From: Bdellovibrionales bacterium
Lineage (GTDB): Bacteria > Bdellovibrionota > Bdellovibrionia > Bdellovibrionales > UBA1609
DNA length: 64,000 nt
Reading direction: 5' to 3'
Assembly: GCA_965200875.1 (NCBI GenBank)
Contig: OZ241456.1
Location: forward strand, 1,056,001 to 1,120,000
The notes under the pieces are model-generated. The model did no database searches, was not told the origin of the DNA, and saw only the letters and a list, made by a program, of their open reading frames with translations. How positions within the stretch are numbered: position 1 is the first letter of the stretch; each line of letters begins with the position of its first letter. The position numbers and the translations under genes are program-made. Shown here in pieces: positions 5,625 through 26,697 of this stretch.

Positions 5625-6078
5625 AACTATACTCCTTATTATGAACTGTTAAACTGCACTCCACTTTAATAACAAGACATTACTTTGTCAATTTATTTTC
5701 ATTTCTTAAACCAAATTTTAGGGGTCAAAACATCAGAAGTTCATAAATATTGGAAAACACTTATTTATTTTTATTGCATTGTGCATTACAGCATGATATG
5801 TGAAACTTGAAGTTATTTAATCGCCCGTGAAAAACCTCTGATACCGATTATTTACCGGCATGTAAAAAAAATTTTACAGCTGTGTAAAGATTTCATTCTT
5901 TAATACTTCTGTTTAGTATTTTGCATAAAATTTATTATTATCAATATAAAAAATGGGGTGGCCCATATCTTTGGCTACCTCATTTGTGTTGATTTAATAT
6001 ATTCCATCAGTAATTTCATGCTAAGTGCTGAATGGGAAGATTTTTATGGTAGTCAAATTTTGGGGGTCAAGAACAATT

Positions 6079-6714
6079 ATGAAAACTATACTTGTTTTAT
6101 TATTCTTAAGTTTAAGTTTTTTTAGTCATGGTCAAGAGAACACATATCCCTCATGTAATATTAATAATTATAAAGAATATATATATATACTAGGCCATCA
6201 TAGATGCAAATTGTTCGAGGCGGATTTGCGTTATGTGAGTTTGCGCTATGCGAATTTGAGCTATGCAAATTTATACAAGGCGAATTTGAGCTATGTAGAT
6301 TTGACCAATGCGAATTTGAGTCATGCAAATTTGCACCTTGCGCATTTGTACAATGCACATTTGTACCAAGCTAATTTACACAAAGCGAATTTACACCTTG
6401 TGGATTTGTACAAAGCAGATTTGAGCCTTGCTACTTTGAGCCATGCAAATTTGTATGAGTCAGATTTGAGCTATGCGGATTTGAGCTATGCGGATTTGCG
6501 TTTTGCGGATTTGTATGGAACAGATTTGAGCCATGCAAATTTGCTCTATGCGGATTTGAGCCATGCGGATTTGTATGGAGCAGATTTGCGCCATGTAAAT
6601 TTTACAGATGCGGATTTACATCTTGCAAATTTTACTGGTGCGAAAGTTGATCCAGCTGGGGCAACTTATTTAACTTCACAAGGTATAAGTGGTTTTGTTG
6701 TTGTTGTAGAATAA
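6079..6714 (+). CDS. Exported pentapeptide-repeat protein (paralog 1)
   Basis: Signal peptide MKTILVLLFLS, CNINNY cap, A(N/D)Lxx repeats, YLTSQGISGF C-cap. Confidence 0.9.
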   Translation: MKTILVLLFLSLSFFSHGQENTYPSCNINNYKEYIYILGHHRCKLFEADLRYVSLRYANLSYANLYKANLSYVDLTNANLSHANLHLAHLYNAHLYQANLHKANLHLVDLYKADLSLATLSHANLYESDLSYADLSYADLRFADLYGTDLSHANLLYADLSHADLYGADLRHVNFTDADLHLANFTGAKVDPAGATYLTSQGISGFVVVVE

Positions 6715-7273: not shown

Positions 7274-7429
7274 TCAATGTGTAATTTCATTTGCTATGGC
7301 CTCAGCTTGTTTTAGTACATTGTCGATGGCAAGTTTTTGCATATCTGGTGGGTAACCATATTCTCGCAAGGTTCGTTTAACCATAACTCTAAGCTTGGCC
7401 CTTATATTTTCCTTAATTTGCCAGTCTAT
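7274..7429 (-). pseudogene. hsdR: C-terminal remnant of type I restriction subunit HsdR
   Basis: [43 protein letters not shown] is the typical HsdR (DUF3387) tail; a stop lies immediately upstream. Confidence 0.85.
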
Positions 7430-7667
7430 TTAAGAAAATATTTTAAATGGCTTAGTCAGGTGTATTGGAAAGAAAATGTTGTATGGTCGCCAGGTTACTT
7501 TATCAGTAGTGTTGGTGTGGATGAAGAAACAATTAAGAGGTATGTTGCATATCAAGGACAGCAGGATTCAGATCAGCTTCGTATGAAGCTGTAGCAGATA
7601 GGACCACGGCTTTAGCCGTGGGAGTCTATATGCAGTTTTAAACAGAGCACCACGGCTTTAGCCGTGG
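7427..7667 (+). mobile_element. tnpA: IS200/IS605-family tnpA 3' fragment with two terminal hairpins
   Basis: WSPGYFISSVG..EETIKRYVAYQ; CCACGGCTTTAGCCGTGG at 7604-7621 and 7650-7667; HUH half missing. Confidence 0.88.
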
Positions 7668-7861: not shown

Positions 7862-8068
7862 TTAGTCGCCAGTTTTAAGTTTTTTAATTTCTTCTTCAGA
7901 AAACCCAGTGCCTTGGCAAAGAACCTGCAAATCCACACCACTCTTAAGTAATTTTGAAATCAGCTCTCTTTGGCCTTCCTGCCGGCCTTCCTGCCGGCCT
8001 TCCTGCCGGCCTTCCTGCCGACCTTTTTTTAAGGCTTCATCATACGAAGATTTTAATAATGGCATCAT
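7862..8068 (-). CDS. Putative intragenic small Rpn antitoxin (RpnS), 68 aa
   Basis: Internal GAGGAG 9 nt before in-frame ATG ATG, preceding the (GRQE)4 repeat. Confidence 0.6.
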   Translation of the reverse strand: MMPLLKSSYDEALKKGRQEGRQEGRQEGRQEGQRELISKLLKSGVDLQVLCQGTGFSEEEIKKLKTGD

Positions 8069-8797
8069 AATTCTTCCCTCCTCTTTCACTGTGGCTTGTT
8101 CAATCTCTTTTACAATCTCCCAATTAAATTTTGGATCATATCGCCGTATATAATCCACTGCTCGCCCGATCAATTCCTCACGCTCACTGGAACTAAGACC
8201 CTGACCTATCGTAAAAAGCTCCTTCACTTTTGATTCATCAAGTCGCCAGATATGTTTTAGAATATACAAAATAGGACGCGTTGTCAAATCCTTGGCCTCC
8301 TTTGACACATCTAAAGACTGAATATTTAAGACACGCGGACGAAAATTCAACACATTATCTACAAATCTCTCTTTTAATTCCACCGGGAAATTATGCAGGT
8401 ACTCGTGAAAATCAAAAGGCCCTGACCATATCTTTTGTGTACTTTGGTTAATAAACACAGGAAGAATAGGGGTTCGTGTATTTTGATAAATCCCTACCTG
8501 ATATATTAAAAACTGTCTCATCAAATCTTGGTCGTATTGGCTTTTGTGTTCCATTAAAAATAATATTCTAGCAGGTTTTTTAGAGCTTTTAAGCTGAGCT
8601 GAGACCAAGAGGTCCATACGTTTTTCTTTTGCGGATTTATCAATAAAAGTTGTGGCTTCTGTTTTAAGGGTGTTCCAATCAAAAAGTTTCATTTCCTCTT
8701 TTGAGAGAACAAGGCTTAGGATATCCACGCAATACTTGGTTTGTGAGTAAACCTCTTTGAATAAATGATCATGTAAAAATTTTTTAGTTTTATTCAT
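7862..8797 (-). CDS. Rpn/YhgA family PD-(D/E)XK nuclease
   Basis: HDHLFK, MDLL, LMEHKS, C-terminal GRQE repeats and TGFSEEEI tail. Confidence 0.9.
   Translation of the reverse strand: MNKTKKFLHDHLFKEVYSQTKYCVDILSLVLSKEEMKLFDWNTLKTEATTFIDKSAKEKRMDLLVSAQLKSSKKPARILFLMEHKSQYDQDLMRQFLIYQVGIYQNTRTPILPVFINQSTQKIWSGPFDFHEYLHNFPVELKERFVDNVLNFRPRVLNIQSLDVSKEAKDLTTRPILYILKHIWRLDESKVKELFTIGQGLSSSEREELIGRAVDYIRRYDPKFNWEIVKEIEQATVKEEGRIMMPLLKSSYDEALKKGRQEGRQEGRQEGRQEGQRELISKLLKSGVDLQVLCQGTGFSEEEIKKLKTGD
7972..8019. repeat. (GGCCTTCCTGCC)4 tandem repeat encoding GRQE-type units
   Basis: Four perfect 12-bp units. Confidence 0.95.
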
Positions 8798-9013: not shown

Positions 9014-10993
9014 TTACTTTTTTAGTTTATTTGTTTTACTTATTTTCTCCAAAAAATTCTTTAATATTTTCTGAATTTTTTCTTGGTTTAAATCACTCTT
9101 TTCCATTTTTTGAATACATTGTTCTTTTATTTCACATATCATCCTCTGCACCTGTTCGTTCATATCTTCTTTTTTTAGACCTTCAGGTTTATTATTTTTC
9201 GAGATTAGTTTTGTTAAGCACTTTTTAGTAGACTCAATTCTATTATCTTCCGGCAATTGTTCAATATCTATGTCACCTATATTGTTATTGGCTAAAATAC
9301 CTTTAACTATTTTTAGAAAAAAATCTCTATTATAAAAATCTTCAATGGTTATTGCATTACTACCCAGATCTTTATATGTATACCAATATTTCGGATTTTT
9401 CATATTTTTCTTTTCTTGTTTTGCACTCTTATCTGAATCAGAGAGAATAAAATATTGTCTATTGACTAATTCAAGTATGGAAGTAACAGTTTTAATATTT
9501 TTCACCCCATCTGTATAACATATTCCAAAATTCTGCCAATTAGAGTCATCAGTCATAAACAGTTTAAGAATTTTTTTATCAGTATAACCTTCCAGTAAAA
9601 TATTTTTTTGTTTCAGCTCTTCATATATGGAATATCCTATTGCTTGGTACACCATTTCAGCAGGTGATGTGCCATCTTCTTTTGCTGATTGAATTGTAGT
9701 GTTTTCCTTATCTCTGGAAACAATAAGATTATTCTCTATATTTTCAGTGTCAATCATTGAAATGGAATGTGTGGCATAAACAACCCAACTGTTTTTACCC
9801 AGTTTTATCAATTTGTTTCTTAAATCCTTTGCACTACTAGGGTGCAAGCCTACTTCCGGCTCATCAATTAAAATCAGTTTTTGCTGTTTTTCTGATATTT
9901 GTTCCTCTACACTCATTAGCAGTAAAAAAGAAATTAGTCTGCGAAAACCATCACTTCTTTGTTGAAAATCAAAAGTGTTCATTGAATCTTCTATTCCTAT
10001 CACTATATTAGATCCATCTGACCGCAACTGTAATTTAACATCTGTAAATTCTTTCCAACTTTTTTTTATATATTCATTTGTTTTTTTATTAACTGTCTCC
10101 AATAAATTTTTATAGGAATTATAACTATTTGATTTTTCAGAAATTTCCTTTCCAATATCTGTTTCCTGGATCCCTGACAACAAAAACATATTCTTTAACG
10201 GAATACAAGTATTTGGATCGCTAACAAAAGTGTTTTTATCAAGATGTGTTGGTAAATCATGTTTTGCTTTGTTATATTCCCATTTAATAACAGGAAAGGA
10301 AATTTTAATATTATTTGGAGGTGTAACTAATTCTCCTATAATGTTTTGTAAATTTTGATATATTTCTTTTAATGTAGTTTGTGATAAATACTCTATAATT
10401 TTATGTTTTTCTTGTTCTGTAAATTGGTACAGTAGATCTTCATTTAAATAAGATACAGTCTCCGGTATTTTTTTAAAGTCTGGATGAGCAGAAAAAAATA
10501 CAGGGTTAAGATGATGCCAATTATTTCCAGTAAGAATTATTTTTTTTGATAGAATATCATTTTCTAATTCTTTTGATTTGAATGGTGGTAACCACTTTTT
10601 TGATTGTTGCTCTTTAACCTCATATATTACGGATGTTGGAAGAATTGCAGGCAAAATTGCAGAACAAAATTTTTTAACACTATGTTCATCTGTTATCATA
10701 GCATTTTTGTCAACAAAAAATTTTTCAAGTAATTTGTTGTTGACCTCTTTTAGGTTGGTTTGTTCTATGTCAAATAAAAATTCAATACATGTATCTGAGT
10801 CAGATTGTTCTTTTTTATCATTTGGATCAATATTTTCTGAGCTTGATAATAAGCTCAAAGCCTTTAATATATTAGATTTTCCACTTTCGTTTTTTCCAAC
10901 TAGGACTTTATGTCCACTCTGAGAAAAATCGAGTTCCATATTTTTTATAGAACGAAAATTCTCTATCTTAACTGATTTTAATTTTAATTTCAT
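9014..10993 (-). CDS. OLD-family ABC-ATPase/TOPRIM nuclease
   Basis: Walker A GKNESGKS, RSDGFR, LILIDEPE, ATHS, TOPRIM LLEGYTD and SDSD. Confidence 0.85.
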   Translation of the reverse strand: MKLKLKSVKIENFRSIKNMELDFSQSGHKVLVGKNESGKSNILKALSLLSSSENIDPNDKKEQSDSDTCIEFLFDIEQTNLKEVNNKLLEKFFVDKNAMITDEHSVKKFCSAILPAILPTSVIYEVKEQQSKKWLPPFKSKELENDILSKKIILTGNNWHHLNPVFFSAHPDFKKIPETVSYLNEDLLYQFTEQEKHKIIEYLSQTTLKEIYQNLQNIIGELVTPPNNIKISFPVIKWEYNKAKHDLPTHLDKNTFVSDPNTCIPLKNMFLLSGIQETDIGKEISEKSNSYNSYKNLLETVNKKTNEYIKKSWKEFTDVKLQLRSDGSNIVIGIEDSMNTFDFQQRSDGFRRLISFLLLMSVEEQISEKQQKLILIDEPEVGLHPSSAKDLRNKLIKLGKNSWVVYATHSISMIDTENIENNLIVSRDKENTTIQSAKEDGTSPAEMVYQAIGYSIYEELKQKNILLEGYTDKKILKLFMTDDSNWQNFGICYTDGVKNIKTVTSILELVNRQYFILSDSDKSAKQEKKNMKNPKYWYTYKDLGSNAITIEDFYNRDFFLKIVKGILANNNIGDIDIEQLPEDNRIESTKKCLTKLISKNNKPEGLKKEDMNEQVQRMICEIKEQCIQKMEKSDLNQEKIQKILKNFLEKISKTNKLKK

Positions 10994-11304
10994 AAAATCC
11001 TCCTATATCTATACAATACTCATTAGGTTGTTTTTAAACCCCTCTACTTTACAGCTAAGCTTTGAGACCTTGAAGATTCAAAATCGATAGTATAATTTGC
11101 CTGAAAAATACCTTAAAACATAAAATATAGGTGCAATTTTTCCGATGTCAAGGTGATCAATTAAAAAAATATCCTTGAGCTTCAAAATTAACTGTTTCTG
11201 CACAAAGAAAGAGGGATACGCTTGCCCCTCCCCTCATCAAGCCACAGCAACAGAAGGTTGCCCGGCTCACAGGAAAATGCTTTTTGTAAGGCTGTACTTG
11301 GAAC

Positions 11305-11469
11305 TGTGATTCGTGAGAAAGCTTGTCCTCGCGAATGGCATAATGTGTGCCCTGCGGGGATATGTTATTTTGACTGGATTCCCGCATACGCGGGAATAAC
11401 GATCCTTGGAGACTATTCGAAGAAATGACAATGGTATTGTAAATAAAAGGGAGTGTTCACGAGCCATTA
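11305..11469. repeat. Degenerate copy of dispersed MITE/REP-like element
   Basis: TATGTTATTTTGACTGGATTCCCGCATACGCGGGAAT core; end TTCACGAGCCATTA overlaps the stop of the next gene. Confidence 0.75.
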
Positions 11470-12285
11470 TTTACTGTTTTTACTTAATTGAAAAATTGCT
11501 GTTTTTAAAACCTGAAAACATAGTTTAGCAGTGTGTTCATCCGGGTTAAATTTTTTGACAGCTTGCTGATATGGGTGAATATAATTTCTAAAATTTCTCA
11601 ATGAATGGCTGAATTTCTGTACATCTTCATTTAATAACTCAACTTCTTTAGCCACATCAATCAAACTACTAAGAGTCCATTTCTGAAATGGTAAAACTTT
11701 CTTGTTTTTATCTTTAGGACATGCTTTGGTGGAATTAAACTCTTTGGTTTTCTGTAAAGCGACACCGAGTAATATGCCTTCAAGAGTGCTTCCACATAAA
11801 AAAATTGTTGCCAAGACTGATTTGGAATGCAAGCATTGTTCAATTTCTTGCATTCTTTGCTCAATTATTTGTGTTATTGAGAGATCTAAATTTAATTTTT
11901 GAATGGAAATATTTTTGAATTCTCTTTTTAGAAAAATATCCTCTGATTCCTGTTCTGTGATTTGTTCTCGATTTCCTTTTTGTAATCGTAAAATTATTTT
12001 TATAGCTTTGGCCTTATCATAAGAATTAACACTTTCTATAGCGCAAGCATATTCAAGCAAGTCTTTTAGCACCTGACTAACAGTTTTATCTGACTCAATT
12101 TCCCAAAAAGCCCTAAGCCTTTTCATTTTTGATCTGCCGTTAATATGATATTTATTCGCTTCAATATTTATTCCATGTTCTCTAAAGAATTCAGCAAAGG
12201 TTTTATCATTAAAATTAAGGACATACCCATCACGATCAAATAATTTTTCAAAAATAACTTTCTCGTGCATTTTTAATTGAGACAT
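11467..12285 (-). CDS. AbiJ-like N-terminal domain plus HEPN-like C-terminal defence protein
   Basis: GYVLNF..F...SKMKRLRAFW N-terminus; RNFRNYIHP HEPN-type motif. Confidence 0.6.
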   Translation of the reverse strand: MSQLKMHEKVIFEKLFDRDGYVLNFNDKTFAEFFREHGINIEANKYHINGRSKMKRLRAFWEIESDKTVSQVLKDLLEYACAIESVNSYDKAKAIKIILRLQKGNREQITEQESEDIFLKREFKNISIQKLNLDLSITQIIEQRMQEIEQCLHSKSVLATIFLCGSTLEGILLGVALQKTKEFNSTKACPKDKNKKVLPFQKWTLSSLIDVAKEVELLNEDVQKFSHSLRNFRNYIHPYQQAVKKFNPDEHTAKLCFQVLKTAIFQLSKNSK

Positions 12286-12313
12286 TTTACCCTCGCTTGA
12301 TGATTTATCATTT

Positions 12314-13810
12314 TTAACAATATGGCATCACTTGTGTTTTGTCATATTTAAAAGCTAATCTCACAGAACCAGTTATTAGTTTTGGCAATAGAATATTACG
12401 CAGTTTTTCAAGGTTTAAAATTTGAGACTGATTGTGATATATTTTATTAAATAATGGCTCTACTAAAAACTGAAAACGAGATATAACACCTTTATCTGGC
12501 ATCGAAACCATAATTTTTGAAAAATTACTAGTGTTTAAATTCATTGTGGTTGTGCCACCACTAGCCATTGCTTCCAATGAAGATTGAAATGATTTCATAA
12601 AAAGATAGATGAAATATCTATACTTATCCTCTTTTGGAATAATAGAGTTTATTTGTTGATTGGTCTGGCTTTCAAAAGCATTCATTGAAATTAAACCAAC
12701 TGTTGCAATACAGCTTACACAAATTGATTTTTTTGGTATGGTTTTATTACTTTGAGAATTTTGTCCTGATTTTGAAAGTCCATCCTCTGTTTTAAATACA
12801 AAAGTATTTCCGTGCATATCAGGAATTTTTATAAATGGTATTTTCTTACCAAAATATTTATGTATCTTTTTTGACGGTGTTTTTCCACAGATAATATATC
12901 CAAAATATGATAAAGGTTTTTGTGGCCAGTGGGGGTTGGCATCTTGGATAAACCATTTGTGGAAGAGGGTTTGAGCCATTTCTTCCAAAGTTTTGTTTTG
13001 TTCATGCAACAGTTCAATTTTGTCATCCAAACTAGACAACACTTCAGCAATCGCCTTTTGTTCAGAGAGGGGAGGGAGTAGAATTTCTAAATTCATAAGC
13101 TCATCTATCTGCACTCTTTGTCTTCCTGAAGAACCAGTCATGGATTTTATGGCTAAATCTCTAAAATATGAAGAGATAGTAAAATAAAACAGATAATACT
13201 TATCAACTAAATTGTATTTACCTCTCATAACAATAAATTCTGTTGAACCAAAACCTAATTCATCTTTCTCTAAAAAATTAACAAAAGCTGTTTTTCCATT
13301 TTCCAAACAAGGTGTTATTCTGGCCACTAAAGTATCACCATTTCTGAACTTTGATCCCCCTTTGTATAATTCATTTGTATAACCAGACACTTTTCGTTTA
13401 AAAGATATTAAATTATCCATCAATACTTTTTTTGCCAATGATTTTTTTGGAAGTTTTTCCAGTGGATTAAAAATGACAACTTCCCCCAGTTTCACTTTGT
13501 GCCAGCCTTTTCTGTAAATGATTATTCCATACTTATCAATATGCTCTTTTAAGTTTTGATTATCAATTTTTGGATAAGAGACAAAATCAAAAAAAAATGG
13601 CAAATCTGTTTCTTCTTCAAAATAAAATTTCAGATCAGAAATCAGTTTATGGTTGGCTTTTTTTCCTTTAATGGCCATATCCACATCTGAAGCTTCTTTA
13701 AAAGTATTTATAGCCCTAGACCCAAATAATAAAGCTGACTCAATCTCTTCATATCGAGAGAGAATTGTGGTTACTTCATTAAGTTGTGATTCTGAAAGAC
13801 CATATTTCAC
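12314..13810 (-). CDS. hsdS: MNT nucleotidyltransferase fused to type I R-M specificity subunit HsdS
   Basis: aa1-100 LFGSRA..SDVDMAI; then TRD1, LPPLSEQKAIAEVLSSLDDKIEL spacer, TRD2 and LRNILLPKLITG. Confidence 0.92.
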   Translation of the reverse strand: MKYGLSESQLNEVTTILSRYEEIESALLFGSRAINTFKEASDVDMAIKGKKANHKLISDLKFYFEEETDLPFFFDFVSYPKIDNQNLKEHIDKYGIIIYRKGWHKVKLGEVVIFNPLEKLPKKSLAKKVLMDNLISFKRKVSGYTNELYKGGSKFRNGDTLVARITPCLENGKTAFVNFLEKDELGFGSTEFIVMRGKYNLVDKYYLFYFTISSYFRDLAIKSMTGSSGRQRVQIDELMNLEILLPPLSEQKAIAEVLSSLDDKIELLHEQNKTLEEMAQTLFHKWFIQDANPHWPQKPLSYFGYIICGKTPSKKIHKYFGKKIPFIKIPDMHGNTFVFKTEDGLSKSGQNSQSNKTIPKKSICVSCIATVGLISMNAFESQTNQQINSIIPKEDKYRYFIYLFMKSFQSSLEAMASGGTTTMNLNTSNFSKIMVSMPDKGVISRFQFLVEPLFNKIYHNQSQILNLEKLRNILLPKLITGSVRLAFKYDKTQVMPYC

Positions 13811-13899
13811 GATTTTTTACCCTCATGTTACATTGACAAATCTGAATTTTTATCGGTCCTATACGTAATATCAAATTTAAAATAGCAAGTTTCAAGTTT

Positions 13900-14319
13900 T
13901 TATTCTGAAGTATTTATTTCTTTCTTTAAATTATGATATAGGTCTCTCACAAGAGAGAAGTAAATATCATTTATAAAACCAATAACTTCTTTTAAAATTT
14001 CAGGATGATAAACATGGCTGGTTTGATTGCGTTTTTTAAAAGCTTCTATCCAAGCTTCAGCATCACTTATTATTTCTGATTGAAAAGCCTGTCGAATAAC
14101 TTTTCTTGGTGTTTCCAAATCACTGAATCCTGCATTTTCCAAATAATCTTTTAATGTGTTTCGTGTAAGTTCCATTAATATTTCATAACTTTGAATCAAT
14201 GATAGTTGATAAGCTTCATTTTCTGGATTTTCTTCATACTCTTTTTGTCTTCGGCAAAAAAGATTAAAAGATTTTTCAAAATTTTCAAACCTTTGTTTCC
14301 ATCTTTTTTCGTTATTCAT
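13900..14319 (-). CDS. HI0074-family HEPN protein (nucleotidyltransferase substrate-binding; putative toxin)
   Basis: RWKQRFENF, LIQSYE, TPRKVIRQAF, RNQTSH Rx4H motif. Confidence 0.9.
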   Translation of the reverse strand: MNNEKRWKQRFENFEKSFNLFCRRQKEYEENPENEAYQLSLIQSYEILMELTRNTLKDYLENAGFSDLETPRKVIRQAFQSEIISDAEAWIEAFKKRNQTSHVYHPEILKEVIGFINDIYFSLVRDLYHNLKKEINTSE

Positions 14320-14352: not shown

Positions 14353-14383
14353 ATAATACCTCTTTGGTGTAAACAGTCAAGTG
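14353..14383 (-). promoter_or_regulatory. Sigma70-like promoter for HEPN / MNT-hsdS
   Basis: TTGACT-N16-TATTAT; 18-bp core duplicated at 16333-16350. Confidence 0.55.
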
Positions 14384-14452: not shown

Positions 14453-15010
14453 TTAATGACTAAAATCAGGTGCCACTCTCCGGCATTCATTAAATACACT
14501 TGTTGCAATTGTTATAGTGGATGACATATCAAATTTTTTTTTGCTGATATAGCCAATATCGCCCATGCGCTATCCAATGGCGATAATTTATAAGTTCATA
14601 AAAACTGGAAATGGTAGGTTTATGCACACCTCGCACCTTTTGTTTCCATATTTCCAATATATCTTCTTTCAAACGCACCTTACTAATAGATTTTTTTCTT
14701 TAAATATTTTGTTAAAACTTTTATTTGGTTCTTGATTTAGCTTTTGTTTGCAGACCCGTTTATTAAAATCCTGTCTAAAAATTGCTTCCATAGCGGATAC
14801 AATTTTAAAGACATACGCTGTTTCCAATTCATCCTGTAGTTTTTGAAAATACTGTTTGGCTTCATTTTCAGTCATACCTAAAAAGTCTTGTAATTCATTT
14901 TTCAGAGTCGATCCAGGGTGTATTTTGATTACTCTCTCAAGATGGGTTAAAGCTAATCGAGTATGAATATACCAATTATTTATATCATAAAATATATTTA
15001 TTTTTATCAT
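14453..15010 (-). pseudogene. HEPN-like protein broken by two homopolymer frameshifts
   Basis: After the A7 run the alternative frame reads SISKVRLKEDILEIW..NYRHWIAHGRYW (Rx4H); an A9 run truncates again. Confidence 0.65.
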
Positions 15011-15114
15011 GCCAATTTATTCCATTTACTTAAATCAATTATATTCTCATTGTTATAAAAAAATATTGAAATAAAAAACTGACTAAAGATTCTTACAACA
15101 AGAGTACACTCAAA

Positions 15115-15678
15115 TTAAGAAATAAGTTGTTCAAAAACTTCCGTAAATTCATTCTCAGTAAAGAGATTGACTCCAGTTGTTGGTATTTGTCTTGAGATTT
15201 TCCATACCAGATCTTGTGAGCTGTGTTGTTTTGTCTTTTTATCTTCAGGCTTTTTGTACTTTTCATATTCAAGTTCTGTATTAAATCCCTGGATTTTTAT
15301 GGAAGGTTGCCCATCTTTGCTCAATAGCAAAAGAAGTGCTTTTCGGTTACCACAAATGATGTCCACTCTACCTCTGGCACCTATAATTAATCTTCCTTGA
15401 GGAATAAAGTGGATAATATGGCCACCTACTGTCCATATCAGTTGATCTATTTGATAAGAACCAATATAGTTTTCAGAAATTGTTATTTTCTGCTTATCCA
15501 ATTGTACTTTATTAAACGCACCTGATTTTCTTATCCAACCTTCGACTTGCTCATATAAATTGTGGACATGAGTTTTCCATTCCACTAAAACTTTATTCCA
15601 ATCCACTTCGGATTTTTTAGATGTTGCTTCATCAATAAGATCTTTTAATTTTTTACTGGCTAAATTCATCATTACCAC
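15115..15678 (-). CDS. Hypothetical protein (defence-island cargo)
   Basis: 187-aa ORF with RBS GAGGT; IIGARGRVDI motif. Confidence 0.7.
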   Translation of the reverse strand: MVMMNLASKKLKDLIDEATSKKSEVDWNKVLVEWKTHVHNLYEQVEGWIRKSGAFNKVQLDKQKITISENYIGSYQIDQLIWTVGGHIIHFIPQGRLIIGARGRVDIICGNRKALLLLLSKDGQPSIKIQGFNTELEYEKYKKPEDKKTKQHSSQDLVWKISRQIPTTGVNLFTENEFTEVFEQLIS

Positions 15679-15757
15679 CTCTTAATTTTTTTATTGGTTT
15701 ATTGTCACTACCTCCCCATTTGCTGTCGTCTAAGTAAAGTGTGTATAAGCTCATTAG

Positions 15758-16129
15758 TTAAGGTATCATCAAAGTTGTTGGGTTTTTATCAGCCCATATT
15801 TTTTTTAACACTGGTCGCATAAAAGATTCCTGAGATACAGGCATTAAAGGTGGCGCAGGCATTTCTTTAAGTTGTTTTGTTTCTTTCTCTACAACCGGGA
15901 GACTTGGATGCTCTCCGCTGTTTGTATTGCGTGTAAAACCAACGCATTCGCCTGTTAAATTTCTTAAGATCCCACCGCTAAACCAACCTCTCTGAGAACC
16001 ATTAAAATCATGTACTCTGTCATTTTCTATGTATCCGGCATATATGCTGTCGACACAACTAAACAACAAACTATTATTTATAATGAGTAGTGAAGCGTGG
16101 CCTTTTCGATCAAAAATAATTTTTTTCAT
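15758..16129 (-). CDS. 4-fold beta-flower-like protein
   Basis: Short Gly/aromatic beta units (FDRKG, AGYI, DFNG, GWF..G) with Pro-rich tail; start moved to ATG 16129. Confidence 0.55.
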   Translation of the reverse strand: MKKIIFDRKGHASLLIINNSLLFSCVDSIYAGYIENDRVHDFNGSQRGWFSGGILRNLTGECVGFTRNTNSGEHPSLPVVEKETKQLKEMPAPPLMPVSQESFMRPVLKKIWADKNPTTLMIP

Positions 16130-16317
16130 AATACTATGTCCTGTTTGAAATCTGTTTTCACGGAGCTGGCAAGCCACGGAAACGAAAAATAATATGAGTT
16201 GGTTTTCAGTTTTTTTGTGGTTTTTAGAGCTGAGCTTTCTATTTTCCTTTAGAGCTAAGCTTTCCAATTTCCTTTTTTTGGGCCTTTTAAGTCAAAATTA
16301 CTTAAAAACCATGAAAC

Positions 16318-16371: not shown

Positions 16372-18132
16372 TTATGTATCAATGCGGGAGAGGTTTTTTA
16401 AAATGCGACTGTTTAGTTTTTCTTCCTCTTTCATTTGTTGATCCAGATGGTCTTTTAATTCTGTAAATTTTTCTGCAAAATTAAAATTATTGTTTTCCTC
16501 TGGTAAGCCCACATAACGACCGGGGCTTAAAATGTAATCCAACTCTCGGATCTTTTGAATGGAAACAGAAGCACAAAAACCTGGTTCATCTTTGTAAATT
16601 AGAGGATTCCCATTTTCGCGAGATTGTACAGTAGGAAACTTGGCTTTTGAGTTTCCAGTTTTCCTGGCCTGATGATCTTCACGGGACTTACGATCTTCAC
16701 GGGCTTGATGAGATTCACGGGACTTACGAGCTTCATGGGTTTGCACACCTCCAGAGGAGCTTTCAGATGTTTCACGAGAAATGACAGCTTTACTTGAAAT
16801 TTTGTCGTTAAAATTGTGAGCACTTTCACCTTCCGCCAACCAACTATGGTATACATGGGCAATTTTGTGAATATCCTCATTATCCAACACGCGATTTCGG
16901 CGATTGATCAGCCGTCCTCTGTTTCTGGCATCAATAAATAGTATTTCATTTTTTCTGTTTGTTTTTCCTCGCCTCAAGAACCAAAGAGATGCTGGAATTT
17001 GAGTGTTTAAAAAAAGTTTGGCGGGCAAATTCACAATGCAATCTATAAGTCGATCTTCAACTATGTTTTTTCGGATTTTATCTTCGTTTGAAGATTTGGA
17101 AGTTAAAGAACCTTTGGCCATCACAAAGCCAGCTTGACCGCCAGGTTGATTTTCTGTCGGAGGTTTTAAATGATAAATAAAATGCTGTATCCAAGCAAAA
17201 TTGGCATTCTTTTCCGGTGGCAGACCATACTTCCAACGCCCATCTTTTTTAAGAAAAGCTTGCCCCCAACTGCTGTCGTTAAAAGGGGGGTTGGCAATAA
17301 TGTAATCCACTTTTAAATCCGGGTAAGCATTTTTCAGAAAAGAACCTTCATTATTCCATTTTACCTGCGAGCTTTCAATCCCACGAATAGCCAAATTCAT
17401 CTTGGCCAGTCGCCAAGTGGTTTGGTTGCTTTCCTGTCCGTAAATGGAAATATCGTTAATTCGTCCCTGATGCTCTTTAATAAATTTTTCAGACTGCACA
17501 AACATACCGCCTGTTCCTGCACAAGGATCAAACACCTTACCCTTGTAAGGCTTAAGCATTTCCACCAAAAGTTTTACAACAGAACGAGGGGTGTAAAACT
17601 GCCCACCTTTTTTGCCTTCTGCCAAGCCGAATTGACCTAAAAAATATTCAAATACATGACCTAAAATATCAGCACTGTGATTTTTAGCAGACTCCATATC
17701 AATATTGCTAAGCTCATCAATAAGTTTCCCGAGGCTTATCGGATCTAGGTTACCTTGAGTGTATATTTTTGGAAGAACATTTTTTAAAGTCGGGTTTTCT
17801 TTTTCAATGGCAGACATTGCTGAATCAATATCTTGGCCAATTTCCGGTAATTTAGCGCGAGAACGCAAATAAGACCAACGGGCCAAAGGTGGAACAAAAA
17901 AGATATTTTCCGCTTTGTATTCGTCACGGTCTTCTAGATCAGCCTTGCATTTTCCTTTGCTGGTTTTAAATTTACTGTGAAAGGCTTCAAAAGAATCAGA
18001 GATGTATTTTAGGAAAATTAAACCCAACACAATGTGTTTGTATTCAGCGGCATCAATGTTTTTTCTGAGATTATCTGCTGATAGCCACAGTTTTTTTTCT
18101 ATAGGTTCTTTTTTTGAAAATGTTTTTTTCAT
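16372..18132 (-). CDS. hsdM: Type I R-M methyltransferase subunit with repeat-derived in-frame insertion
   Basis: GQFYTP, DPCAGTGGMF, ANPPFN, LSPGRYVG. Confidence 0.96.
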   Translation of the reverse strand: MKKTFSKKEPIEKKLWLSADNLRKNIDAAEYKHIVLGLIFLKYISDSFEAFHSKFKTSKGKCKADLEDRDEYKAENIFFVPPLARWSYLRSRAKLPEIGQDIDSAMSAIEKENPTLKNVLPKIYTQGNLDPISLGKLIDELSNIDMESAKNHSADILGHVFEYFLGQFGLAEGKKGGQFYTPRSVVKLLVEMLKPYKGKVFDPCAGTGGMFVQSEKFIKEHQGRINDISIYGQESNQTTWRLAKMNLAIRGIESSQVKWNNEGSFLKNAYPDLKVDYIIANPPFNDSSWGQAFLKKDGRWKYGLPPEKNANFAWIQHFIYHLKPPTENQPGGQAGFVMAKGSLTSKSSNEDKIRKNIVEDRLIDCIVNLPAKLFLNTQIPASLWFLRRGKTNRKNEILFIDARNRGRLINRRNRVLDNEDIHKIAHVYHSWLAEGESAHNFNDKISSKAVISRETSESSSGGVQTHEARKSRESHQAREDRKSREDHQARKTGNSKAKFPTVQSRENGNPLIYKDEPGFCASVSIQKIRELDYILSPGRYVGLPEENNNFNFAEKFTELKDHLDQQMKEEEKLNSRILKNLSRIDT

Positions 18133-19400: not shown

Positions 19401-20204
19401 TAAGTATAAGCACCTTTCTGGAGAAAAAATGCTAAGCCCCCTCCGCGATAGAGGTTCATCCTCGGTTGCTTATGATTCTTATTAAAAAAAAGCAGTGGCC
19501 ACAATGACCACCGCTTAACAAAGCCATAAGATTATTTTTTTACCAAGGATTAAATATGAAAACTAGGCTTTGTATATTCTTATTCCTTCATTGATTGGCT
19601 GAGCAGGAAACAAAAAAAAATATTAGTATGATCCCTGACAATATTATTTCCATTTTTTAATCACCTCACTGGTTTTGATGCTATTACTTTTGACCTTATA
19701 TTTCCCTCCATTAAGTTTTTTTGTGTTCATATAGAATACATAAATATTTCTGGTGGATATAAAATCCAGTAAAGAATATTTATTTTTTTGTTTATTTTCT
19801 CAAAGTGAGACACTTACCTGTTTATTGTTTAAACAAGTGAATAAAATCTAAATAGTCGGGCGTGAAAAAGGTGTTAACGCACTGTTATTAACAGAAGACT
19901 TATTAAGATAAAGGGAATCATATTGAAGATGAGGAGGACGAAAATAATCGCAGAAGGGTGCTCGATATTTTTTTTTAGCTGAAAAGACTACATAAAAAGC
20001 TAGTTTTTGATAAAAAAAACAGAGGTTCTTGGAGTGGAAAGCTTTGTTATTTCAATAGGTTGGAGTGAAAAATGCTGAAAAATCCCAGAAAAAATGCTCA
20101 CCTGCCACAGAGATATACCCCATTTTTTTCAATATGATTCTCCTTTTTTTTATGTACAATTATGTTGTGAATATATAATCAATAACAACAAAAGGTGTAA
20201 TTTT

Positions 20205-20864
20205 ATGAAAACCATATTCCTTTTATTATTTTTAAGCTTTGGCTCTTTTGGTCATGGTAAAGAGAACACTGAAACTACATGTAATATTAATAATTATAAA
20301 GCTTATATAAATAAGCCGGGAGTTCATAAGTGTAATTTGAGCAGGGCAAATTTGTTCAAGGCGGATTTACGAGGGGCGAATTTGAGTGAAGCAAATTTGA
20401 GTTTTGCAGGTTTAAGCGATGCAAATTTATCTGAAGCGAATTTGACTGGAGCAAATTTGCACTTTGCAGATTTGTTTGAAGCAAGTTTGACTATGGCGAT
20501 TTTATTTGAAGCAGATTTGACAGAGACGGTTTTGTTTGGGGCGAATTTGACTGGGGCAGATTTGTATAAGGCGAATTTAACCGGGGCGAATTTGACTGGG
20601 GCAAATTTGACTGGAGCGGATTTGCGTTTCGCGAATTTGACAGAGGCAGGTTTGCGGGGAGTAAATTTGACTGGAGCGAATTTAACCGGGGCGAATTTGA
20701 CTGGAGCAGATTTGCGTTGGATATTTTTATTTGAAGTGGATTTGTACAAAGCAAACTTGACCGGGGCGGATTTGACCGGCACTAAAGTCACCAAAGAACA
20801 GGCGAAGTATTTAAAATCAAAAGGTTTAAGTGGGTTTATTGTGATAGATTCCGTTATTGATTGA
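20205..20864 (+). CDS. Exported pentapeptide-repeat protein (paralog 2)
   Basis: Signal peptide, CNINNY..HKCNL cap, ANLTG repeats, YLKSKGLSGF. Confidence 0.9.
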   Translation: MKTIFLLLFLSFGSFGHGKENTETTCNINNYKAYINKPGVHKCNLSRANLFKADLRGANLSEANLSFAGLSDANLSEANLTGANLHFADLFEASLTMAILFEADLTETVLFGANLTGADLYKANLTGANLTGANLTGADLRFANLTEAGLRGVNLTGANLTGANLTGADLRWIFLFEVDLYKANLTGADLTGTKVTKEQAKYLKSKGLSGFIVIDSVID

Positions 20865-21040: not shown

Positions 21041-23164
21041 ATGACAGACAATACAGAATCACTTCACTTTGTGGCACTAGAGGGATATACTGAAATCGCT
21101 GAAAAATTAATAGCGCATGGTGCCGACATCCATGCTAAAGACAAAGATGACAGAACAGCTTTGCATTTTGCAACAACAACCGGACATACTGAAACCGCTG
21201 AAAAGTTAATAGATCTTGGTGCTGATATTCATGCTAAAGACAAAGATGACAGAACAGCTTTGCATTTTGCAACAACAACCGGACATACTAAAACCGCTGA
21301 AAAGTTAATAGATCTTGGTGCTGATATTCATGCTAAAGACAAGAATGGCAAGACAGCTCTTCACTTTGCGACTCTAGAGGGACATACTGAAATCGCTAAA
21401 AAGTTAATAGATCTTGGTGCTGACATCCATGCTAAAGACAAGAGTGGCAAGACAGTTCTTCACTTTGCGACTCTGGAGGGATATACTGAAATCGCTGAAA
21501 AATTAATAGCGCATGGTGCTGATATTCATGCTAAAGACAAAGATGACAAAACAGTTCTTCACTTTGCGACACTAGCGGAACATACTGAAATCGCTAAAAA
21601 GTTAATAGAACTTGGTGCCGACATTCATGCTAAAGACAAAATTGGTATAACAGCTCTTCATCTTGTAGCATATAAGGGACATACTGAAATCGCTGAAAAA
21701 TTAATAGCGCATGGTGCTGATATTCATGCTAAAAACAAGAATGGTATAACAGCTCTTCACGCTATGGCAATATTCGGACATACTGAAACAGTTAAAAAGT
21801 TAATAGATCTTGGTGCCGACATCCATGCTAAAGACAAAAATGGTATGACAGCTCTTCATTTTTCATTATGTAAGGGACATACTGAAACACTTAAAAAATT
21901 AATGGAGCTAGGTGCTGATATTCATGCTAAAGACAAAGATGGTAGAACTGCCCTTCACCTTGCGGCTCTGGAGGGACATACTGAAACGGTCGAAAAGTTA
22001 ATAAAACATGGTGCTGATATTCATGCTAAAGACAACGAGAGAGGAACAGCCCTTCACCTTGCGATCCTAGAGGGACATACTGAAACTGCTGAAAAGTTAA
22101 TAGAACTTGGTGCCGACATTCATGCTAAAAACAAGAATGGCGGAACAGCCCTTCACCTTGCGATCCTAAAGGGACATACTAAAATATTTAAAAAGTTAAT
22201 GGAGCATGGTGCCGACATCCATGTTAAAGACAAGGATGGTAGAACATCTCTGCATGTTATGGCAATGTTCGGACAAACTAAAATCGCTGAAAAATTAATA
22301 AATCTTGGTGCTGATATTCATGCTAAAGACAAAGCTGGTATGACAGCTCTTCTTCTTGCAGCATATAAGGGACATACTGAAACACTTAAAAAGTTAATGA
22401 AGCTAGGTGCTGATATTCATGCTAAAGACAAGGATGGCAGAACAGCCCTTCATCTTGCGACATGGAAGAAACAAGCTAAAACAGTCGAAAAGTTAATAGA
22501 GCGTGGTGTTGATATTGATGCTCAAAACAAAGATGGTATAACAGCTCTTCACTTTGCGGCTCTGGAGGGACATACTGAAATCGCCAAAAAGTTAATAGAG
22601 CGTGGTGCTGACATCCACGCTAAAGAAAGGGTTAGCAGAACAGCCCTTCACCTTGCGATCCTAGAGGGACATACTGAAACTGCTGAAAAGTTAATAGAAC
22701 TTGGTGCTGACATTTATACTACAGACAAGTATGGTAATAGCACCCTTCACCTTTTTGCATGTAAGGGACATACTGAAACGGTCGAAAAGTTAATAGAGCG
22801 TGGTGTTGATATTGATGCTCAAAACAAAGATGGTATAACAGCTCTTCACTTTACAGCAATATTCGGACAGCCTGAAACTGCTGAAAAGTTAATAGCACTT
22901 GGTGCCGACATCCATGCTGAAAATGGTTCAATTCTTCATAATGCGGCATCGAACGGACAGACTGGAATCGTCAAGCAGTTAATAAGACATGGTGTTGATA
23001 TTGATGCTCAAAATAAGTACGGCAGAACAGCCTTTTACTATGCAGTAAAAAATGAACATACTGAAACCGCTGAAACACTTGCAGAGTTAGGTGCTGATGT
23101 CCACGCTGGTAATGGTTGGAAAGTTTTTAATTATTTAAAAAATTTGTTTAACCGACTATTATAG
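21041..23164 (+). CDS. Ankyrin-repeat protein (~20 repeats)
   Basis: Tandem 33-aa GADIHAKDKxGxTALH units. Confidence 0.97.
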   Translation: MTDNTESLHFVALEGYTEIAEKLIAHGADIHAKDKDDRTALHFATTTGHTETAEKLIDLGADIHAKDKDDRTALHFATTTGHTKTAEKLIDLGADIHAKDKNGKTALHFATLEGHTEIAKKLIDLGADIHAKDKSGKTVLHFATLEGYTEIAEKLIAHGADIHAKDKDDKTVLHFATLAEHTEIAKKLIELGADIHAKDKIGITALHLVAYKGHTEIAEKLIAHGADIHAKNKNGITALHAMAIFGHTETVKKLIDLGADIHAKDKNGMTALHFSLCKGHTETLKKLMELGADIHAKDKDGRTALHLAALEGHTETVEKLIKHGADIHAKDNERGTALHLAILEGHTETAEKLIELGADIHAKNKNGGTALHLAILKGHTKIFKKLMEHGADIHVKDKDGRTSLHVMAMFGQTKIAEKLINLGADIHAKDKAGMTALLLAAYKGHTETLKKLMKLGADIHAKDKDGRTALHLATWKKQAKTVEKLIERGVDIDAQNKDGITALHFAALEGHTEIAKKLIERGADIHAKERVSRTALHLAILEGHTETAEKLIELGADIYTTDKYGNSTLHLFACKGHTETVEKLIERGVDIDAQNKDGITALHFTAIFGQPETAEKLIALGADIHAENGSILHNAASNGQTGIVKQLIRHGVDIDAQNKYGRTAFYYAVKNEHTETAETLAELGADVHAGNGWKVFNYLKNLFNRLL

Positions 23165-23578: not shown

Positions 23579-23712
23579 TTGCCTCTGAAAAAGGTTTTTG
23601 CAATAAAGCAAACATAACTTACTTTGCTTTAAAACAGGTGTTGATTCCTGTAAATAAATAGTGGTCTGTGAAAAAGTATGTTATAGGGAATAACTTACCA
23701 AAAGGATTCATC

Positions 23713-25446
23713 GTGTCTAATATTACAACAAGTTCTACAGCTGAATATTTTGCAAAAAATCTCCAGCAGGTGGGTTTTTCTTCTCCCGTCAAGGCTGTAC
23801 TGACCACTTTAAAAGAAGCTATGGATAATTCACTGGATGCCTGTGAAGAGGCCCATATTCTTCCTGAAATTACAGTGGAGATAAAAAGGAATGGAAAATC
23901 ATCCAGCAAAAATACGGAGCTGGTGGAAATCAGTGTAGAAGATAATGGCCCTGGTTTAAAGCCGGATGATCTGCCTAAAGTGTTTGGTGAGTATCTGGCT
24001 TCTTCTAAGTTTGGCAAGGGACGTTGTTCACGAGGGCAACAGGGAATTGGTATTTCTGCAGCCACAACTTGGGCACAGCTTACCAATGCTTCTGGTGTGG
24101 AAGTTATCAGTAAAACAAAAAATATGCAAAAAGCCATTAGTGTTGTTATTGATGTGAATATTAAGAAAAACAAAGGTGTTATAAAAAAGAAAGAAACTTT
24201 TAAATGGAATAAATCCAATGGATTGAAGGCAGTGTTTCGTATTGACGGTCGTGTGCAATTAAATGGTGATGGAGGATTGATTACTTATCTGGAAGGTACA
24301 GCCCTAGTGAATCCGCATCTTACTTTGCACTATAAACTCATTGACAGAGAATGGAGGCATATCGAAAAAGTAACGAACAATGTTCCAGCCATTCCTCCAG
24401 CCACTTTACCTCATCCACATACAATGAAATTGGGAGAATTTATTTCTCACGCTCATTTATTCAATCAAGCAAATTTAAAGTCTTTTTTGAGGAAAAGTTT
24501 TTCGAAGATAGGCAGAAAGACATTGGATGACTTTCAAAAGAATGGTCTTTCCTCCACTCTATTGAATAAAAGACTGCAATATTTTAAAGAAGATGAGTAT
24601 AAAAAAGTTTTTCAGGTTATTCAAAAAACAGAGATGTCCAACCCCACCACCCGTTCCGTTTTAACAGTAGGGGAGGAGGCTTTGTCTCACTCCATTTTGC
24701 GAATTGGAGAGGTGGATTTTTTCAGTGTTGTCACAAGGAAACCGCGGATTTGCGATCATAAACCTGTAGTGGTGGAAACAGCGATTGCCAGATTGTTGGA
24801 AAAAGCAACAGACAGTGAAAACACGACAGTGCGATTAATGAGATTTGCCAACAGGGTTCCTCTTCAGTTTGACAAATCGGCCTGTGCTATTACCAAAGCG
24901 GTGGAATCAGTAAACTGGAAAGCCTACGGTCTGGCTCAGCAAAAAAACAGCTTGCCCTTGGGACCTTATGTATTCGCAGTTTCCGTCACTTCACCTTTCA
25001 TTAAATTTAAAAATGCTTCCAAAGAGACTATTGATGCCAGTGAAGAATTGGTGGAGGAGATTAGAAGAACACTTATGCAGACCGGACAGAAGTTGGCTCG
25101 TCACATCAGGAGAGAAAAAAAAGCTCATGATTTGGAAAGAAAAACCCAGTACATTAAACAATTTGTTCCTATTTTGGTGAAAAAACTGAGTGATATTACA
25201 AAAGCCAGCAACAAGAGGCAAGAGAAAGCGACAAAGGGAATTATGAAACTTTTGGGTCAGGATACTAAACAGGCGGAAGAAGCTTTAAAGACGGCGGAAA
25301 CCAAACTGAAAGATTTAAAAAACTCTTCCAGAAAACTTTCTGTTGATGAATTTGAAAATAATAATCATGGCGTTGGTGGAACTACAAAGAAAAGAACCAA
25401 ACAAAAAATAAAACCTTTAAAGAATAAAAAGCACAAACAGCCGTAA
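23713..25446 (+). CDS. top6B: DNA topoisomerase VI subunit B
   Basis: AEYFAKN, EAMDNSLDA, EDNGPG, SRGQQGIGIS, RFANRVPL; GTG start after AAAGGA. Confidence 0.95.
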   Translation: MSNITTSSTAEYFAKNLQQVGFSSPVKAVLTTLKEAMDNSLDACEEAHILPEITVEIKRNGKSSSKNTELVEISVEDNGPGLKPDDLPKVFGEYLASSKFGKGRCSRGQQGIGISAATTWAQLTNASGVEVISKTKNMQKAISVVIDVNIKKNKGVIKKKETFKWNKSNGLKAVFRIDGRVQLNGDGGLITYLEGTALVNPHLTLHYKLIDREWRHIEKVTNNVPAIPPATLPHPHTMKLGEFISHAHLFNQANLKSFLRKSFSKIGRKTLDDFQKNGLSSTLLNKRLQYFKEDEYKKVFQVIQKTEMSNPTTRSVLTVGEEALSHSILRIGEVDFFSVVTRKPRICDHKPVVVETAIARLLEKATDSENTTVRLMRFANRVPLQFDKSACAITKAVESVNWKAYGLAQQKNSLPLGPYVFAVSVTSPFIKFKNASKETIDASEELVEEIRRTLMQTGQKLARHIRREKKAHDLERKTQYIKQFVPILVKKLSDITKASNKRQEKATKGIMKLLGQDTKQAEEALKTAETKLKDLKNSSRKLSVDEFENNNHGVGGTTKKRTKQKIKPLKNKKHKQP

Positions 25447-25524
25447 AATTTATTCAATAGGATGATGGTATAGGCGGATACTCTTACTTCCAAATAATAA
25501 ACTTAAAGAAACAAAAGAGGAAAT

Positions 25525-26697
25525 ATGGCAAAAAAACAAAATATGATTCGTATCAGAAAATTGAATAAAAATATTCCAAAGATGGCTTTTCAAATGTGCG
25601 ATAGTATGTTGAAAGATCTGGAAAAAGCGAAGCGACCTGTGCTTTCGGCTATTAAATGTTCTTTGGATAACAGTGAATATGATTCTAAAAAAGGTTACTT
25701 GATTCCTAAAGGGAAGGTCGTGCAATCAGAATTAAATGTTTCCTCCGTGCAAAAAATATCCCGGGCAGTCTTTTTACTGGAAATTTTGCTAAACAATCTT
25801 AAAGGGGGGTTGGTTAATACCAAGAGGGAATTGTATTATATTTGCAAAGGTTTGATTAAGTCCGACACCTTGTACAAGCCTTTGGATTTTGACAGTCAGA
25901 ACGAAAGCGATTCCACTATTGATTTTATAACGGATATGCTGGAAGTATATCGAGAGGAAATGAATTGTTTTGCAAACGACCGTGGAGGGCAAACCTATTC
26001 CAAGAATCTGGTGGTGACGGAAACCCTGCAAGACAATACGAAGGCAGTAGTGGATTTAAGTACTTTGGGAACTACACCTTTCCAACCTAAAAACAAACCC
26101 CAACAGTTTCAACTTAAAAAGAAAGGCAGATTGGATTTTTGTCTTGTAGTGGAATCTGAAGGCACAGCCAATACTTTAGTGGCCAATGGAATGACAAAAA
26201 GGCATAATTGTATTGTTGTGGGTGCACAAGGAGTGCCGAGCAATGCTGTTCGGGGTTGGTGCAAGACAATTCAAAATCAATTAAAAATCCCCATATTTTT
26301 TTATGGAGATTTAGATGCCTATACTCTACAAAATATCTATCGCACTTTAAAGGCAGGTTCTGCCGCCAGTTTAATTAGAAACGCGGATTTTAGTGCACCA
26401 GAAGTGCATTTTCTGGGTTTGCTTCCTGAAGATGTGCAAAAGTATGATTTGCATTGTTACGAAGTTTCCACCAAGGACGCCAGCGAAATGCGATCCATAA
26501 AAAAAGCCAAGGATGTTTTAAAAAATGATCCTTTTTTTCAGGACAAAAAAAACAAAAAGCTATCTCGGATTTTAAAATGGCTTATCAAGGAGAAAAAAAG
26601 ATGTGAACAACAATCTGTGTTTTCCATAGACCCTAAAAATCCAAAAGTGCTGGAGGAATTTATTATCAATAAGATCAAAACCAACTCTTATTGTTAA
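25525..26697 (+). CDS. top6A: DNA topoisomerase VI subunit A (Spo11-like)
   Basis: TKRELYY catalytic Tyr, LVVE TOPRIM, QGVP, DLD. Confidence 0.93.
   Translation: MAKKQNMIRIRKLNKNIPKMAFQMCDSMLKDLEKAKRPVLSAIKCSLDNSEYDSKKGYLIPKGKVVQSELNVSSVQKISRAVFLLEILLNNLKGGLVNTKRELYYICKGLIKSDTLYKPLDFDSQNESDSTIDFITDMLEVYREEMNCFANDRGGQTYSKNLVVTETLQDNTKAVVDLSTLGTTPFQPKNKPQQFQLKKKGRLDFCLVVESEGTANTLVANGMTKRHNCIVVGAQGVPSNAVRGWCKTIQNQLKIPIFFYGDLDAYTLQNIYRTLKAGSAASLIRNADFSAPEVHFLGLLPEDVQKYDLHCYEVSTKDASEMRSIKKAKDVLKNDPFFQDKKNKKLSRILKWLIKEKKRCEQQSVFSIDPKNPKVLEEFIINKIKTNSYC

Follow-up and report, generated by a model that had tools for sequence, protein, structure and literature searches.

HEPN-MNT pairs have been called the most abundant predicted toxin-antitoxin (TA) modules, and their physiological function has been described as obscure (PMC7641770, available text). 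The same text defines the class I HepT/MntA systems by a HEPN protein of family PF01934 or PF08780 with an RX4HXY motif and a neighbouring MNT (minimal nucleotidyltransferase) with a GSX10DXD motif. In the Legionella pair Lpg2920/Lpg2921, the HEPN protein cuts rRNA, whereas the MNT modifies the motif tyrosine with 3-4 AMPs in a reaction that is incomplete and ATP-dependent; residues Q44 and E47 of this HEPN belong to a metal site (PMC11586414, in the part available). The guarding of restriction-modification (R-M) systems by HEPN proteins has been predicted in general terms (PMC3710099, available text), and Ronin was reported, in the available part of the preprint, as an hsdR-less decoy whose toxin is set off by ArdA or Ocr (bioRxiv 10.1101/2023.04.06.535777); according to PDB titles, Ocr binds the methylase core.

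Here we describe a locus in which an MNT domain continues in frame into HsdS, the specificity subunit of a type I R-M system, next to a HEPN gene. It lies in a stretch of 64,000 nucleotides from contig OZ241456.1 of a Bdellovibrionales bacterium, referred to as the window, in a genome of 1.87 Mb that is 94.5% complete. The gene layout and the fusion are established, as are purifying selection, the conservation of catalytic and acceptor residues, and recurrence across phyla. The fusion is real, widespread and conserved, and it represents an apparently undescribed R-M-embedded toxin system built from a known TA class.

The locus and its proteins

The features of the locus are collected in Table 1. 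The HEPN protein scores 103 bits with PF08780 (cut-off 31.8) and 72 bits with the HI0074 family TIGR01987 (cut-off 55.8); its motif RNQTSHVY occupies residues 97-104, providing R97 and H102 together with Y104 as AMP acceptor, and Q43 and E46 align with Q44 and E47 of the Legionella protein. In the 498-aa protein a Polbeta domain (residues 11-101; 49.5 bits, cut-off 26.9) is followed by two Methylase_S stretches, and the MNT motif GS-X10-DxD reads GSRAINTFKEASDVD at residues 30-44. The MNT domain reaches 27.2 bits with PF01909 (cut-off 21) and 49.5 with PF18765, while its 27.3 bits with the NCBIfam MntA model NF047752 remain below the cut-off of 60; the PADLOC specificity model PDLC03138 already covers the MNT part (residues 11-293). 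The AlphaFold2 model of the fusion (mean pLDDT 90.9, pTM 0.82) displays two TRDs and two long helices; in Foldseek searches the N-terminal domain matched the Legionella MNT 8XEO (TMt 0.93) and the remainder matched HsdS structures. Thus, both the intact HI0074-type HEPN gene and the single frame running from MNT into a complete two-TRD HsdS, as reported in the initial annotation, are borne out.

Table 1. Features of the locus, with positions in the window
Feature	Position	Strand	Basis
hsdM, type I methyltransferase, 586 aa	16372..18132	-	PF02384/PF12161; NPPF motif intact
Three cargo ORFs (169 aa Bflower-domain, 187 aa, 113 aa) in hsdM-HEPN gap	14669..16267	-	ORF and domain scan
Sigma-70-like site TTGACT-16-TATTAT, 5′ of HEPN gene	14353..14380	-	Consensus match only
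HI0074-family HEPN, predicted RNase toxin, 139 aa	13900..14319	-	PF08780, TIGR01987, motif
MNT::HsdS fusion gene, 498 aa, GTG start	12314..13810	-	Polbeta and two Methylase_S, model
MNT domain (residues 1-99), predicted adenylyltransferase antitoxin; G30 S31 D42 D44	13514..13810	-	Domains, structure match
Fusion junction: linker RKG, then conserved HsdS W103; no Met	13502..13513	-	Alignment, contigs
272-aa cargo gene, likely second HEPN fold (DUF4145/AbiJ-like), RNFRNYIH	11467..12285	-	Pfam match below cut-off
OLD-like ABC ATPase-TOPRIM cargo gene, 659 aa	9014..10993	-	Domain scan
Rpn/YhgA-like transposase, multi-copy in sample	7862..8797	-	Domain scan, contigs
IS200 tnpA 3′ fragment	7427..7594	+	PF01797 over cut-off
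hsdR 3′ remnant, 51 codons	7274..7429	-	Matches about the last 50 HsdR residues

The pair combines a PF08780 protein bearing RX4HXY with an adjoining PF01909 MNT bearing GSX10DXD, as class I HepT/MntA is defined at the sequence level, and in line with the TA pair proposed at first; it departs from the two small stand-alone proteins of that class, the MNT being fused to HsdS. Its closest solved relatives are the Legionella proteins (PDB 8XDJ, 8XEH, 8XEO; E 7.5e-17 for HEPN to 8XDJ and 2e-10 for MNT to 8XEO), which are a proven RNase/AMPylase pair. Both partners are under purifying selection, with dN/dS values against the related locus L013 (loci are given as L numbers), from a genome of the same genus, of 0.13 for HEPN and 0.17 for MNT. 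HEPN and MNT likely form a functional type VII toxin-antitoxin module. When the whole fusion was modelled together with a HEPN dimer, the complex scored 0.33 and the best control 0.00, which is weak support. This mark is reached by 116 of 157 solved pairs and 2 of 215 mismatched ones, yet with a score of 0.60 or less by only 18 solved pairs and both mismatches. At least 84% of the contacts recur between runs, partner pLDDT is at least 86, and a complex of this kind is already solved in 8XEH; no RNA holder was listed.

The junction, for which a check around position 13500 had been proposed, is bridged with no differing letter by contigs X1 (12103-13592), X2 (12793-13594) and X3 (10596-13896) from two studies; X1 and X2 share one sample, which may be the source, and X3 comes from the second study, at depth 2. 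An assembly error or a one-off read-through is ruled out by these contigs together with the 123 fused proteins described below. An internal restart yielding free HsdS was also rejected: the junction contains no Met, and starting at the GTG of V106 would drop the conserved W103.

As in type I R-M systems, HsdS comprises two TRDs and conserved helices and HsdM has its SAM-binding and NPPF motifs; an intact HsdR, present in the relatives L013 and L030, is missing from the window. The deletion of hsdR noted initially is thus confirmed, only the 3′ stub being left, which is 80% identical to the HsdR of a relative and abuts the tnpA fragment on the opposite strand. No further HsdR of this family was found elsewhere in the genome, at 94.5% completeness; its two other HsdR genes are a split gene with 23% identity and a 765-aa gene of another family. 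Alignment with orthologues places a low-complexity insert of about 80 aa near residues 432-512 of HsdM. Such in-frame inserts are seen in the window hsdM at 16600-16840 (-) and in the MNT-HsdS linkers of L034, L229, L235 and L223; they resemble translated palindromic repeat elements.

The three cargo ORFs are absent from L013 and L030, where hsdM abuts HEPN, and one X2 contig joins position 14373 directly to 16377. The 113-aa ORF (14669-15010, -) corresponds to a 183-aa ORF of L216 in truncated form (82% over 96 aa) and is probably a pseudogene. Homologues of the 272-aa cargo gene sit 3′ of the fusion in L216 (71%) and L147 (43%); its product contains an RX6H motif, belongs to unnamed Atlas clusters and, judging from its sequence, is possibly a second abortive-infection HEPN. 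Sigma-70-like matches were not above chance, the promoter scan giving 53 sites against 46.5 ± 7.9 in shuffles. Further along the window, genes for topoisomerase VI subunits B and A are found at 23668-26697 (+), and inspection by eye revealed pentapeptide-repeat-like and ankyrin-repeat-like proteins at 6025-6714, 20094-20864 and 21041-23164, as in host-associated bacteria.

Distribution and history of the fusion

The proposed search for further MNT-HsdS fusions recovered 123 among 266 retrieved proteins, 39 from the best 120 homologues and 84 new ones from a profile search (50%-identity representatives). The MNT is N-terminal in every fused protein and GS-X10-DxD is kept in 122 of the 123; apparent catalytic-core deletions in L133 and L136 turned out to be non-standard starts, both being intact fusions. 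Met is absent from 83 of the 92 junctions that could be placed, and 31 of the 92 have a linker of three residues, so that HsdS can be produced only with its MNT. Six ESM-Atlas clusters share the architecture, the top three belonging to Bacteroidota and Pseudomonadota.

A profile of MNT plus junction was run over 809 genomes of three phyla (301, 107 and 401), with 10-14 candidates scored per genome; because the query (A2) contained the junction, Hsd fusions were favoured in rank but not in detection. It gave 291 MNT matches, including 33 distinct stop-free frames of at least 300 aa, which were all examined: 30 were MNT::HsdS, one MNT::HsdM, one MNT::HsdR and one HEPN-MNT, and two shorter frames corresponded to MNT::half-HsdS. 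Long MNT frames are therefore fused almost only to Hsd subunits (32/33), and none of the 40 top-scoring short MNTs adjoins an intact hsdS. Among 80 metagenome loci found by HsdS patterns, four were fused, each with HEPN directly upstream, and unfused MNTs of the same family occurred in L062, L074 and L085; a third sample of 40 more hsdM loci, from fusion-bearing and related genomes, added four fusions. Overall, 47 fused loci compare with four unfused cases of the MNT family (the second pair of L062, L074, L085 and L225), and inside intact operons the fused MNT is the usual state. Of the 94 records from a plasmid search, none spanned 80% of the query, and the matches listed were free MNTs.

HEPN lies directly upstream at 41 of the 43 fused loci with room for it, and hsdM precedes the fusion in 34 of 35. 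RX4HXY is kept in 43 of 44 HEPNs at fused loci vs 46 of 56 beside free MNTs. The compact form is exemplified by L030, with hsdM, HEPN, MNT::hsdS and hsdR in overlapping or 11-base joins. Some arrangements are more elaborate: in L128, L129, L131 and L137 a single HEPN precedes a tandem MNT-MNT::HsdS protein (638-682 aa) whose two MNTs differ, with a partial version in L012; in L145:3193-6882, MNT::HsdM is succeeded by another HEPN and an MNT::half-HsdS, and L156:6869-10162 contains MNT::HsdR with a decayed HEPN upstream. Free pairs in which HEPN has an N-terminal extension of about 170 aa are found at L036:7016-8235 and L038:8491-9692, in genomes of the same genus.

hsdR is absent from 15 of 38 fused loci, the other 23 keeping it, vs 3 of 32 unfused ones (p 0.006), a comparison in which fused loci were scanned to 20 kb (three extra hsdR found) and the control over a shorter range. 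The fused count leaves out L128, L131, L136, L141, L143, L146, L148, L040 and L062, which have less than 5 kb downstream. The control derives from 40 of about 75 non-fused hsdM matches, picked for long contigs; L204, L208 and L209 (contig ends) and L225 (broken fusion) were left out, and L216, L223, L229 and L235, found to be fusions, were shifted to the fused set. When half-size, hsdM-less and metagenome loci are removed, the count becomes 10/32 vs 3/32 (p 0.06), and p is 0.10 after merging two kin pairs, kin loci not being independent. The enrichment of hsdR-less loci among fused ones is only a trend. The earlier suggestion that the tether could explain the persistence of hsdM and hsdS without hsdR is weakened, the difference losing significance under strict counting.

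In the same genome a second locus encodes HEPN and MNT::hsdS (C1:814475-816893), the MNT being of an unrelated lineage, 20% identical to that of the window over 130 aligned residues. The wider region (C1:810499-816893; L034:4500-10894) reads hsdM with an N-terminal extension, Schlafen/AlbA, HEPN and MNT::hsdS; no hsdR was found within 20 kb downstream, while the relatives L223, L229 and L235 keep it. L216, from the same genus, is syntenic with the window, with an hsdM 90% identical and shared 187-aa, 113/183-aa and 272-aa neighbours; its HEPN and MNT are of an unrelated lineage, yet fused again. In a quick MNT tree of 98 columns fused and free sequences interleave, with 23 changes, at least eight of them forced by starred branches; the HsdM tree (FastTree, with long-branch warnings) has 14 changes, at least 11 forced in the same way. 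On these sequence trees fused MNTs are polyphyletic; as the trees are unrooted, repeated fusion, fission and exchange of the HEPN-MNT::hsdS block or cassette are inseparable.

Possible roles of the tether

We tentatively favour, at slightly less than an even chance, the reading that a type VII TA pair tethered to the type I complex acts as a guard resembling PrrC and Ronin. By analogy with the Legionella and Shewanella pairs, the MNT would add AMPs to Y104, silencing the HEPN dimer, and MNT::HsdS would keep HEPN AMPylated; if DNA-mimic or anti-restriction proteins bind or destabilise M2S, or if ATP falls, neutralisation would be cut and unmodified HEPN could cleave RNA, as the PrrC and Ronin precedents suggest. 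Through the tether, the Hsd complex would keep the predicted RNase in check, and phage attack on the complex would result in growth arrest. Control by the Hsd complex is suggested by three points: the MNT is fused almost exclusively to Hsd subunits, fused neighbours outnumber unfused ones, and PrrC and Ronin offer precedents. The nuclease being gone in the window, the locus would act there as methylase and decoy. More broadly, and with a good deal of doubt, the fusions may represent an immune design that is widespread and has arisen repeatedly: an antitoxin enzyme in the restriction complex would serve as integrated sensor, phage DNA mimics and anti-restriction proteins on M2S would stop AMPylation and free the HEPN RNase, hsdR-less loci such as the window would be pure decoys, and any Hsd subunit could be the carrier.

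Several observations weigh against the guard. AMPylation is covalent, so loss of the MNT would presumably not free the modified toxin at once; release would need a de-AMPylase or new synthesis, and this is the main gap of the guard reading. Free HEPN-MNT pairs lie amid hsd relics, with hsdS gone or broken, in L014, L159, L181, L187 and L192, and L032 has an ISL3 element directly 3′ of the MNT, with hsdS broken and HEPN-MNT kept; the pair can survive alone and thus does not depend on the tether. Many cargo genes gather in the hsdM-hsdS gap, and in L210 and L216 a different domain of about 150 aa is fused to HsdS, which therefore accepts N-terminal passengers. Also counted against the guard are the fusions that lack an intact HEPN (L144, L156) and L209, where HEPN is intact and the MNT is broken off at the contig end; in L225 the MNT is out of frame with hsdS and HEPN is missing. 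By eye, unfused TA-like pairs were seen in the hsdM-hsdS gap at L209:6785-8219 and L210:6515-7199 (AbiE-type; antitoxin-first MNT-HEPN).

It is rather unlikely, but deserves weight, that the MNT is a mere passenger at a hotspot: a toxin-first HEPN-MNT cassette would enter the hsdM-hsdS gap, its last gene would read into the next hsd gene, HsdS would tolerate the addition and the block would travel with hsdS, the pair functioning by itself and ignoring the Hsd complex. The fusion of MNT to whichever hsd gene comes next (HsdM in L145, HsdR in L156) agrees with this, as do the other cargo and N-terminal fusions at the site (L209, L210, L216; DUF559 in P0009), the free pairs at relic loci and the known role of type I operons as cargo hotspots (10.1101/2024.01.29.577857, available part). 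Yet free MNTs precede many kinds of genes, whereas 32 of the 33 long fusions involve Hsd subunits; fused and unfused adjacency stand at 47 to 4, the junctions are trimmed and have no start Met, and several MNT lineages less than 30% identical each show fusion. We consider unlikely, too, an addiction module in which the tether links antitoxin supply to hsdS expression and stabilises the type I locus, phage sensing playing no part; type I systems are not known to have post-segregational killing of their own. Toxin and antitoxin motifs are intact at nearly all loci, the fusion has no internal start, M and S tend to be retained once hsdR is lost, and where an IS has disrupted the fusion, the MNT is left intact or HEPN is hit as well (L032). 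But HEPN-MNT outlives hsdS at the relic loci, so a stop or deletion after the MNT drops hsdS and frees the antitoxin; protection extends to the MNT part alone, a free pair would be no less addictive, and the fusion does not make hsdS indispensable. The initial proposal that hsdS loss would be costly is weakened by the same loci, at least six in number. Lastly, the MNT might serve the R-M enzyme itself, modifying Hsd proteins or nucleic acid with HEPN as partner subunit and thereby tuning restriction; the naming of PF08780 as a substrate-binding subunit, the fusions to all three Hsd subunits and the few fusions lacking an intact HEPN (L144, L156) fit this idea. It is improbable, given that 43 of 44 HEPNs keep both acceptor tyrosine and RNase motif, that HEPN is both the substrate and the RNase in the nearest solved pair, and that 15 of 38 loci lack a nuclease whose activity could be tuned.

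Comparison with known systems

A guard of the kind we favour would be hidden from annotation, its genes being named only "restriction endonuclease subunit S". The covalent link to HsdS would provide HEPN-MNT pairs with a concrete, testable trigger, its outcome likely being cell shutdown if a virus interferes with the restriction enzyme; approximately 30 such fusions occur in the 809 genomes. No description of an MNT-HsdS fusion was found in a literature search that largely covered papers outside subscription; the supplements of PMC3710099 and of the Payne preprint may list the layout. "HsdS" does not occur in the available text of PMC3710099, neither "HsdS" nor "restriction" in that of PMC13000451, and neither "MNT" nor "nucleotidyltransferase" in the main text, as available, of bioRxiv 10.1101/2024.01.29.577857.

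The locus resembles class I HepT/MntA in its PF08780 HEPN with RX4HXY beside a short GS-X10-DxD MNT (PMC11586414, PMC7641770, parts available), but its MNT is the N-terminal domain of HsdS in a type I operon and not a free protein. FhepTA, a fused MNT-HEPN, likewise has an MNT active within a larger protein; unlike in the window, the partner is the toxin itself rather than an R-M subunit (PMC13000451, available text). Defence cargo between hsd genes, as surveyed in type I operons (bioRxiv 10.1101/2024.01.29.577857, available part), is shared with the window, where the cargo is instead fused in frame to a core subunit. Ronin, like the window and 15 of 38 fused loci, has hsdM-hsdS without hsdR and a linked toxin; however, RonA is a membrane peptide of 61 aa and its HsdS carries no antitoxin domain (bioRxiv 10.1101/2023.04.06.535777, available part), while the linked toxin candidate of the window is HEPN. 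With PrrC/EcoprrI the locus shares a HEPN RNase gene within a type I operon, proposed as a second line of defence (PMC3710099, PMC12707154, available text). PrrC, according to the same partial sources, is an anticodon nuclease of ABC-ATPase-HEPN build that the Hsd complex binds non-covalently, without an antitoxin enzyme; the ABC-ATPase fusion typical of PrrC and RloC is not seen in the 139-aa window HEPN, which matches PF08780 only. Thus, in contrast to PrrC, the HEPN of the window stands alone and a predicted AMPylase is covalently tethered to the restriction complex.
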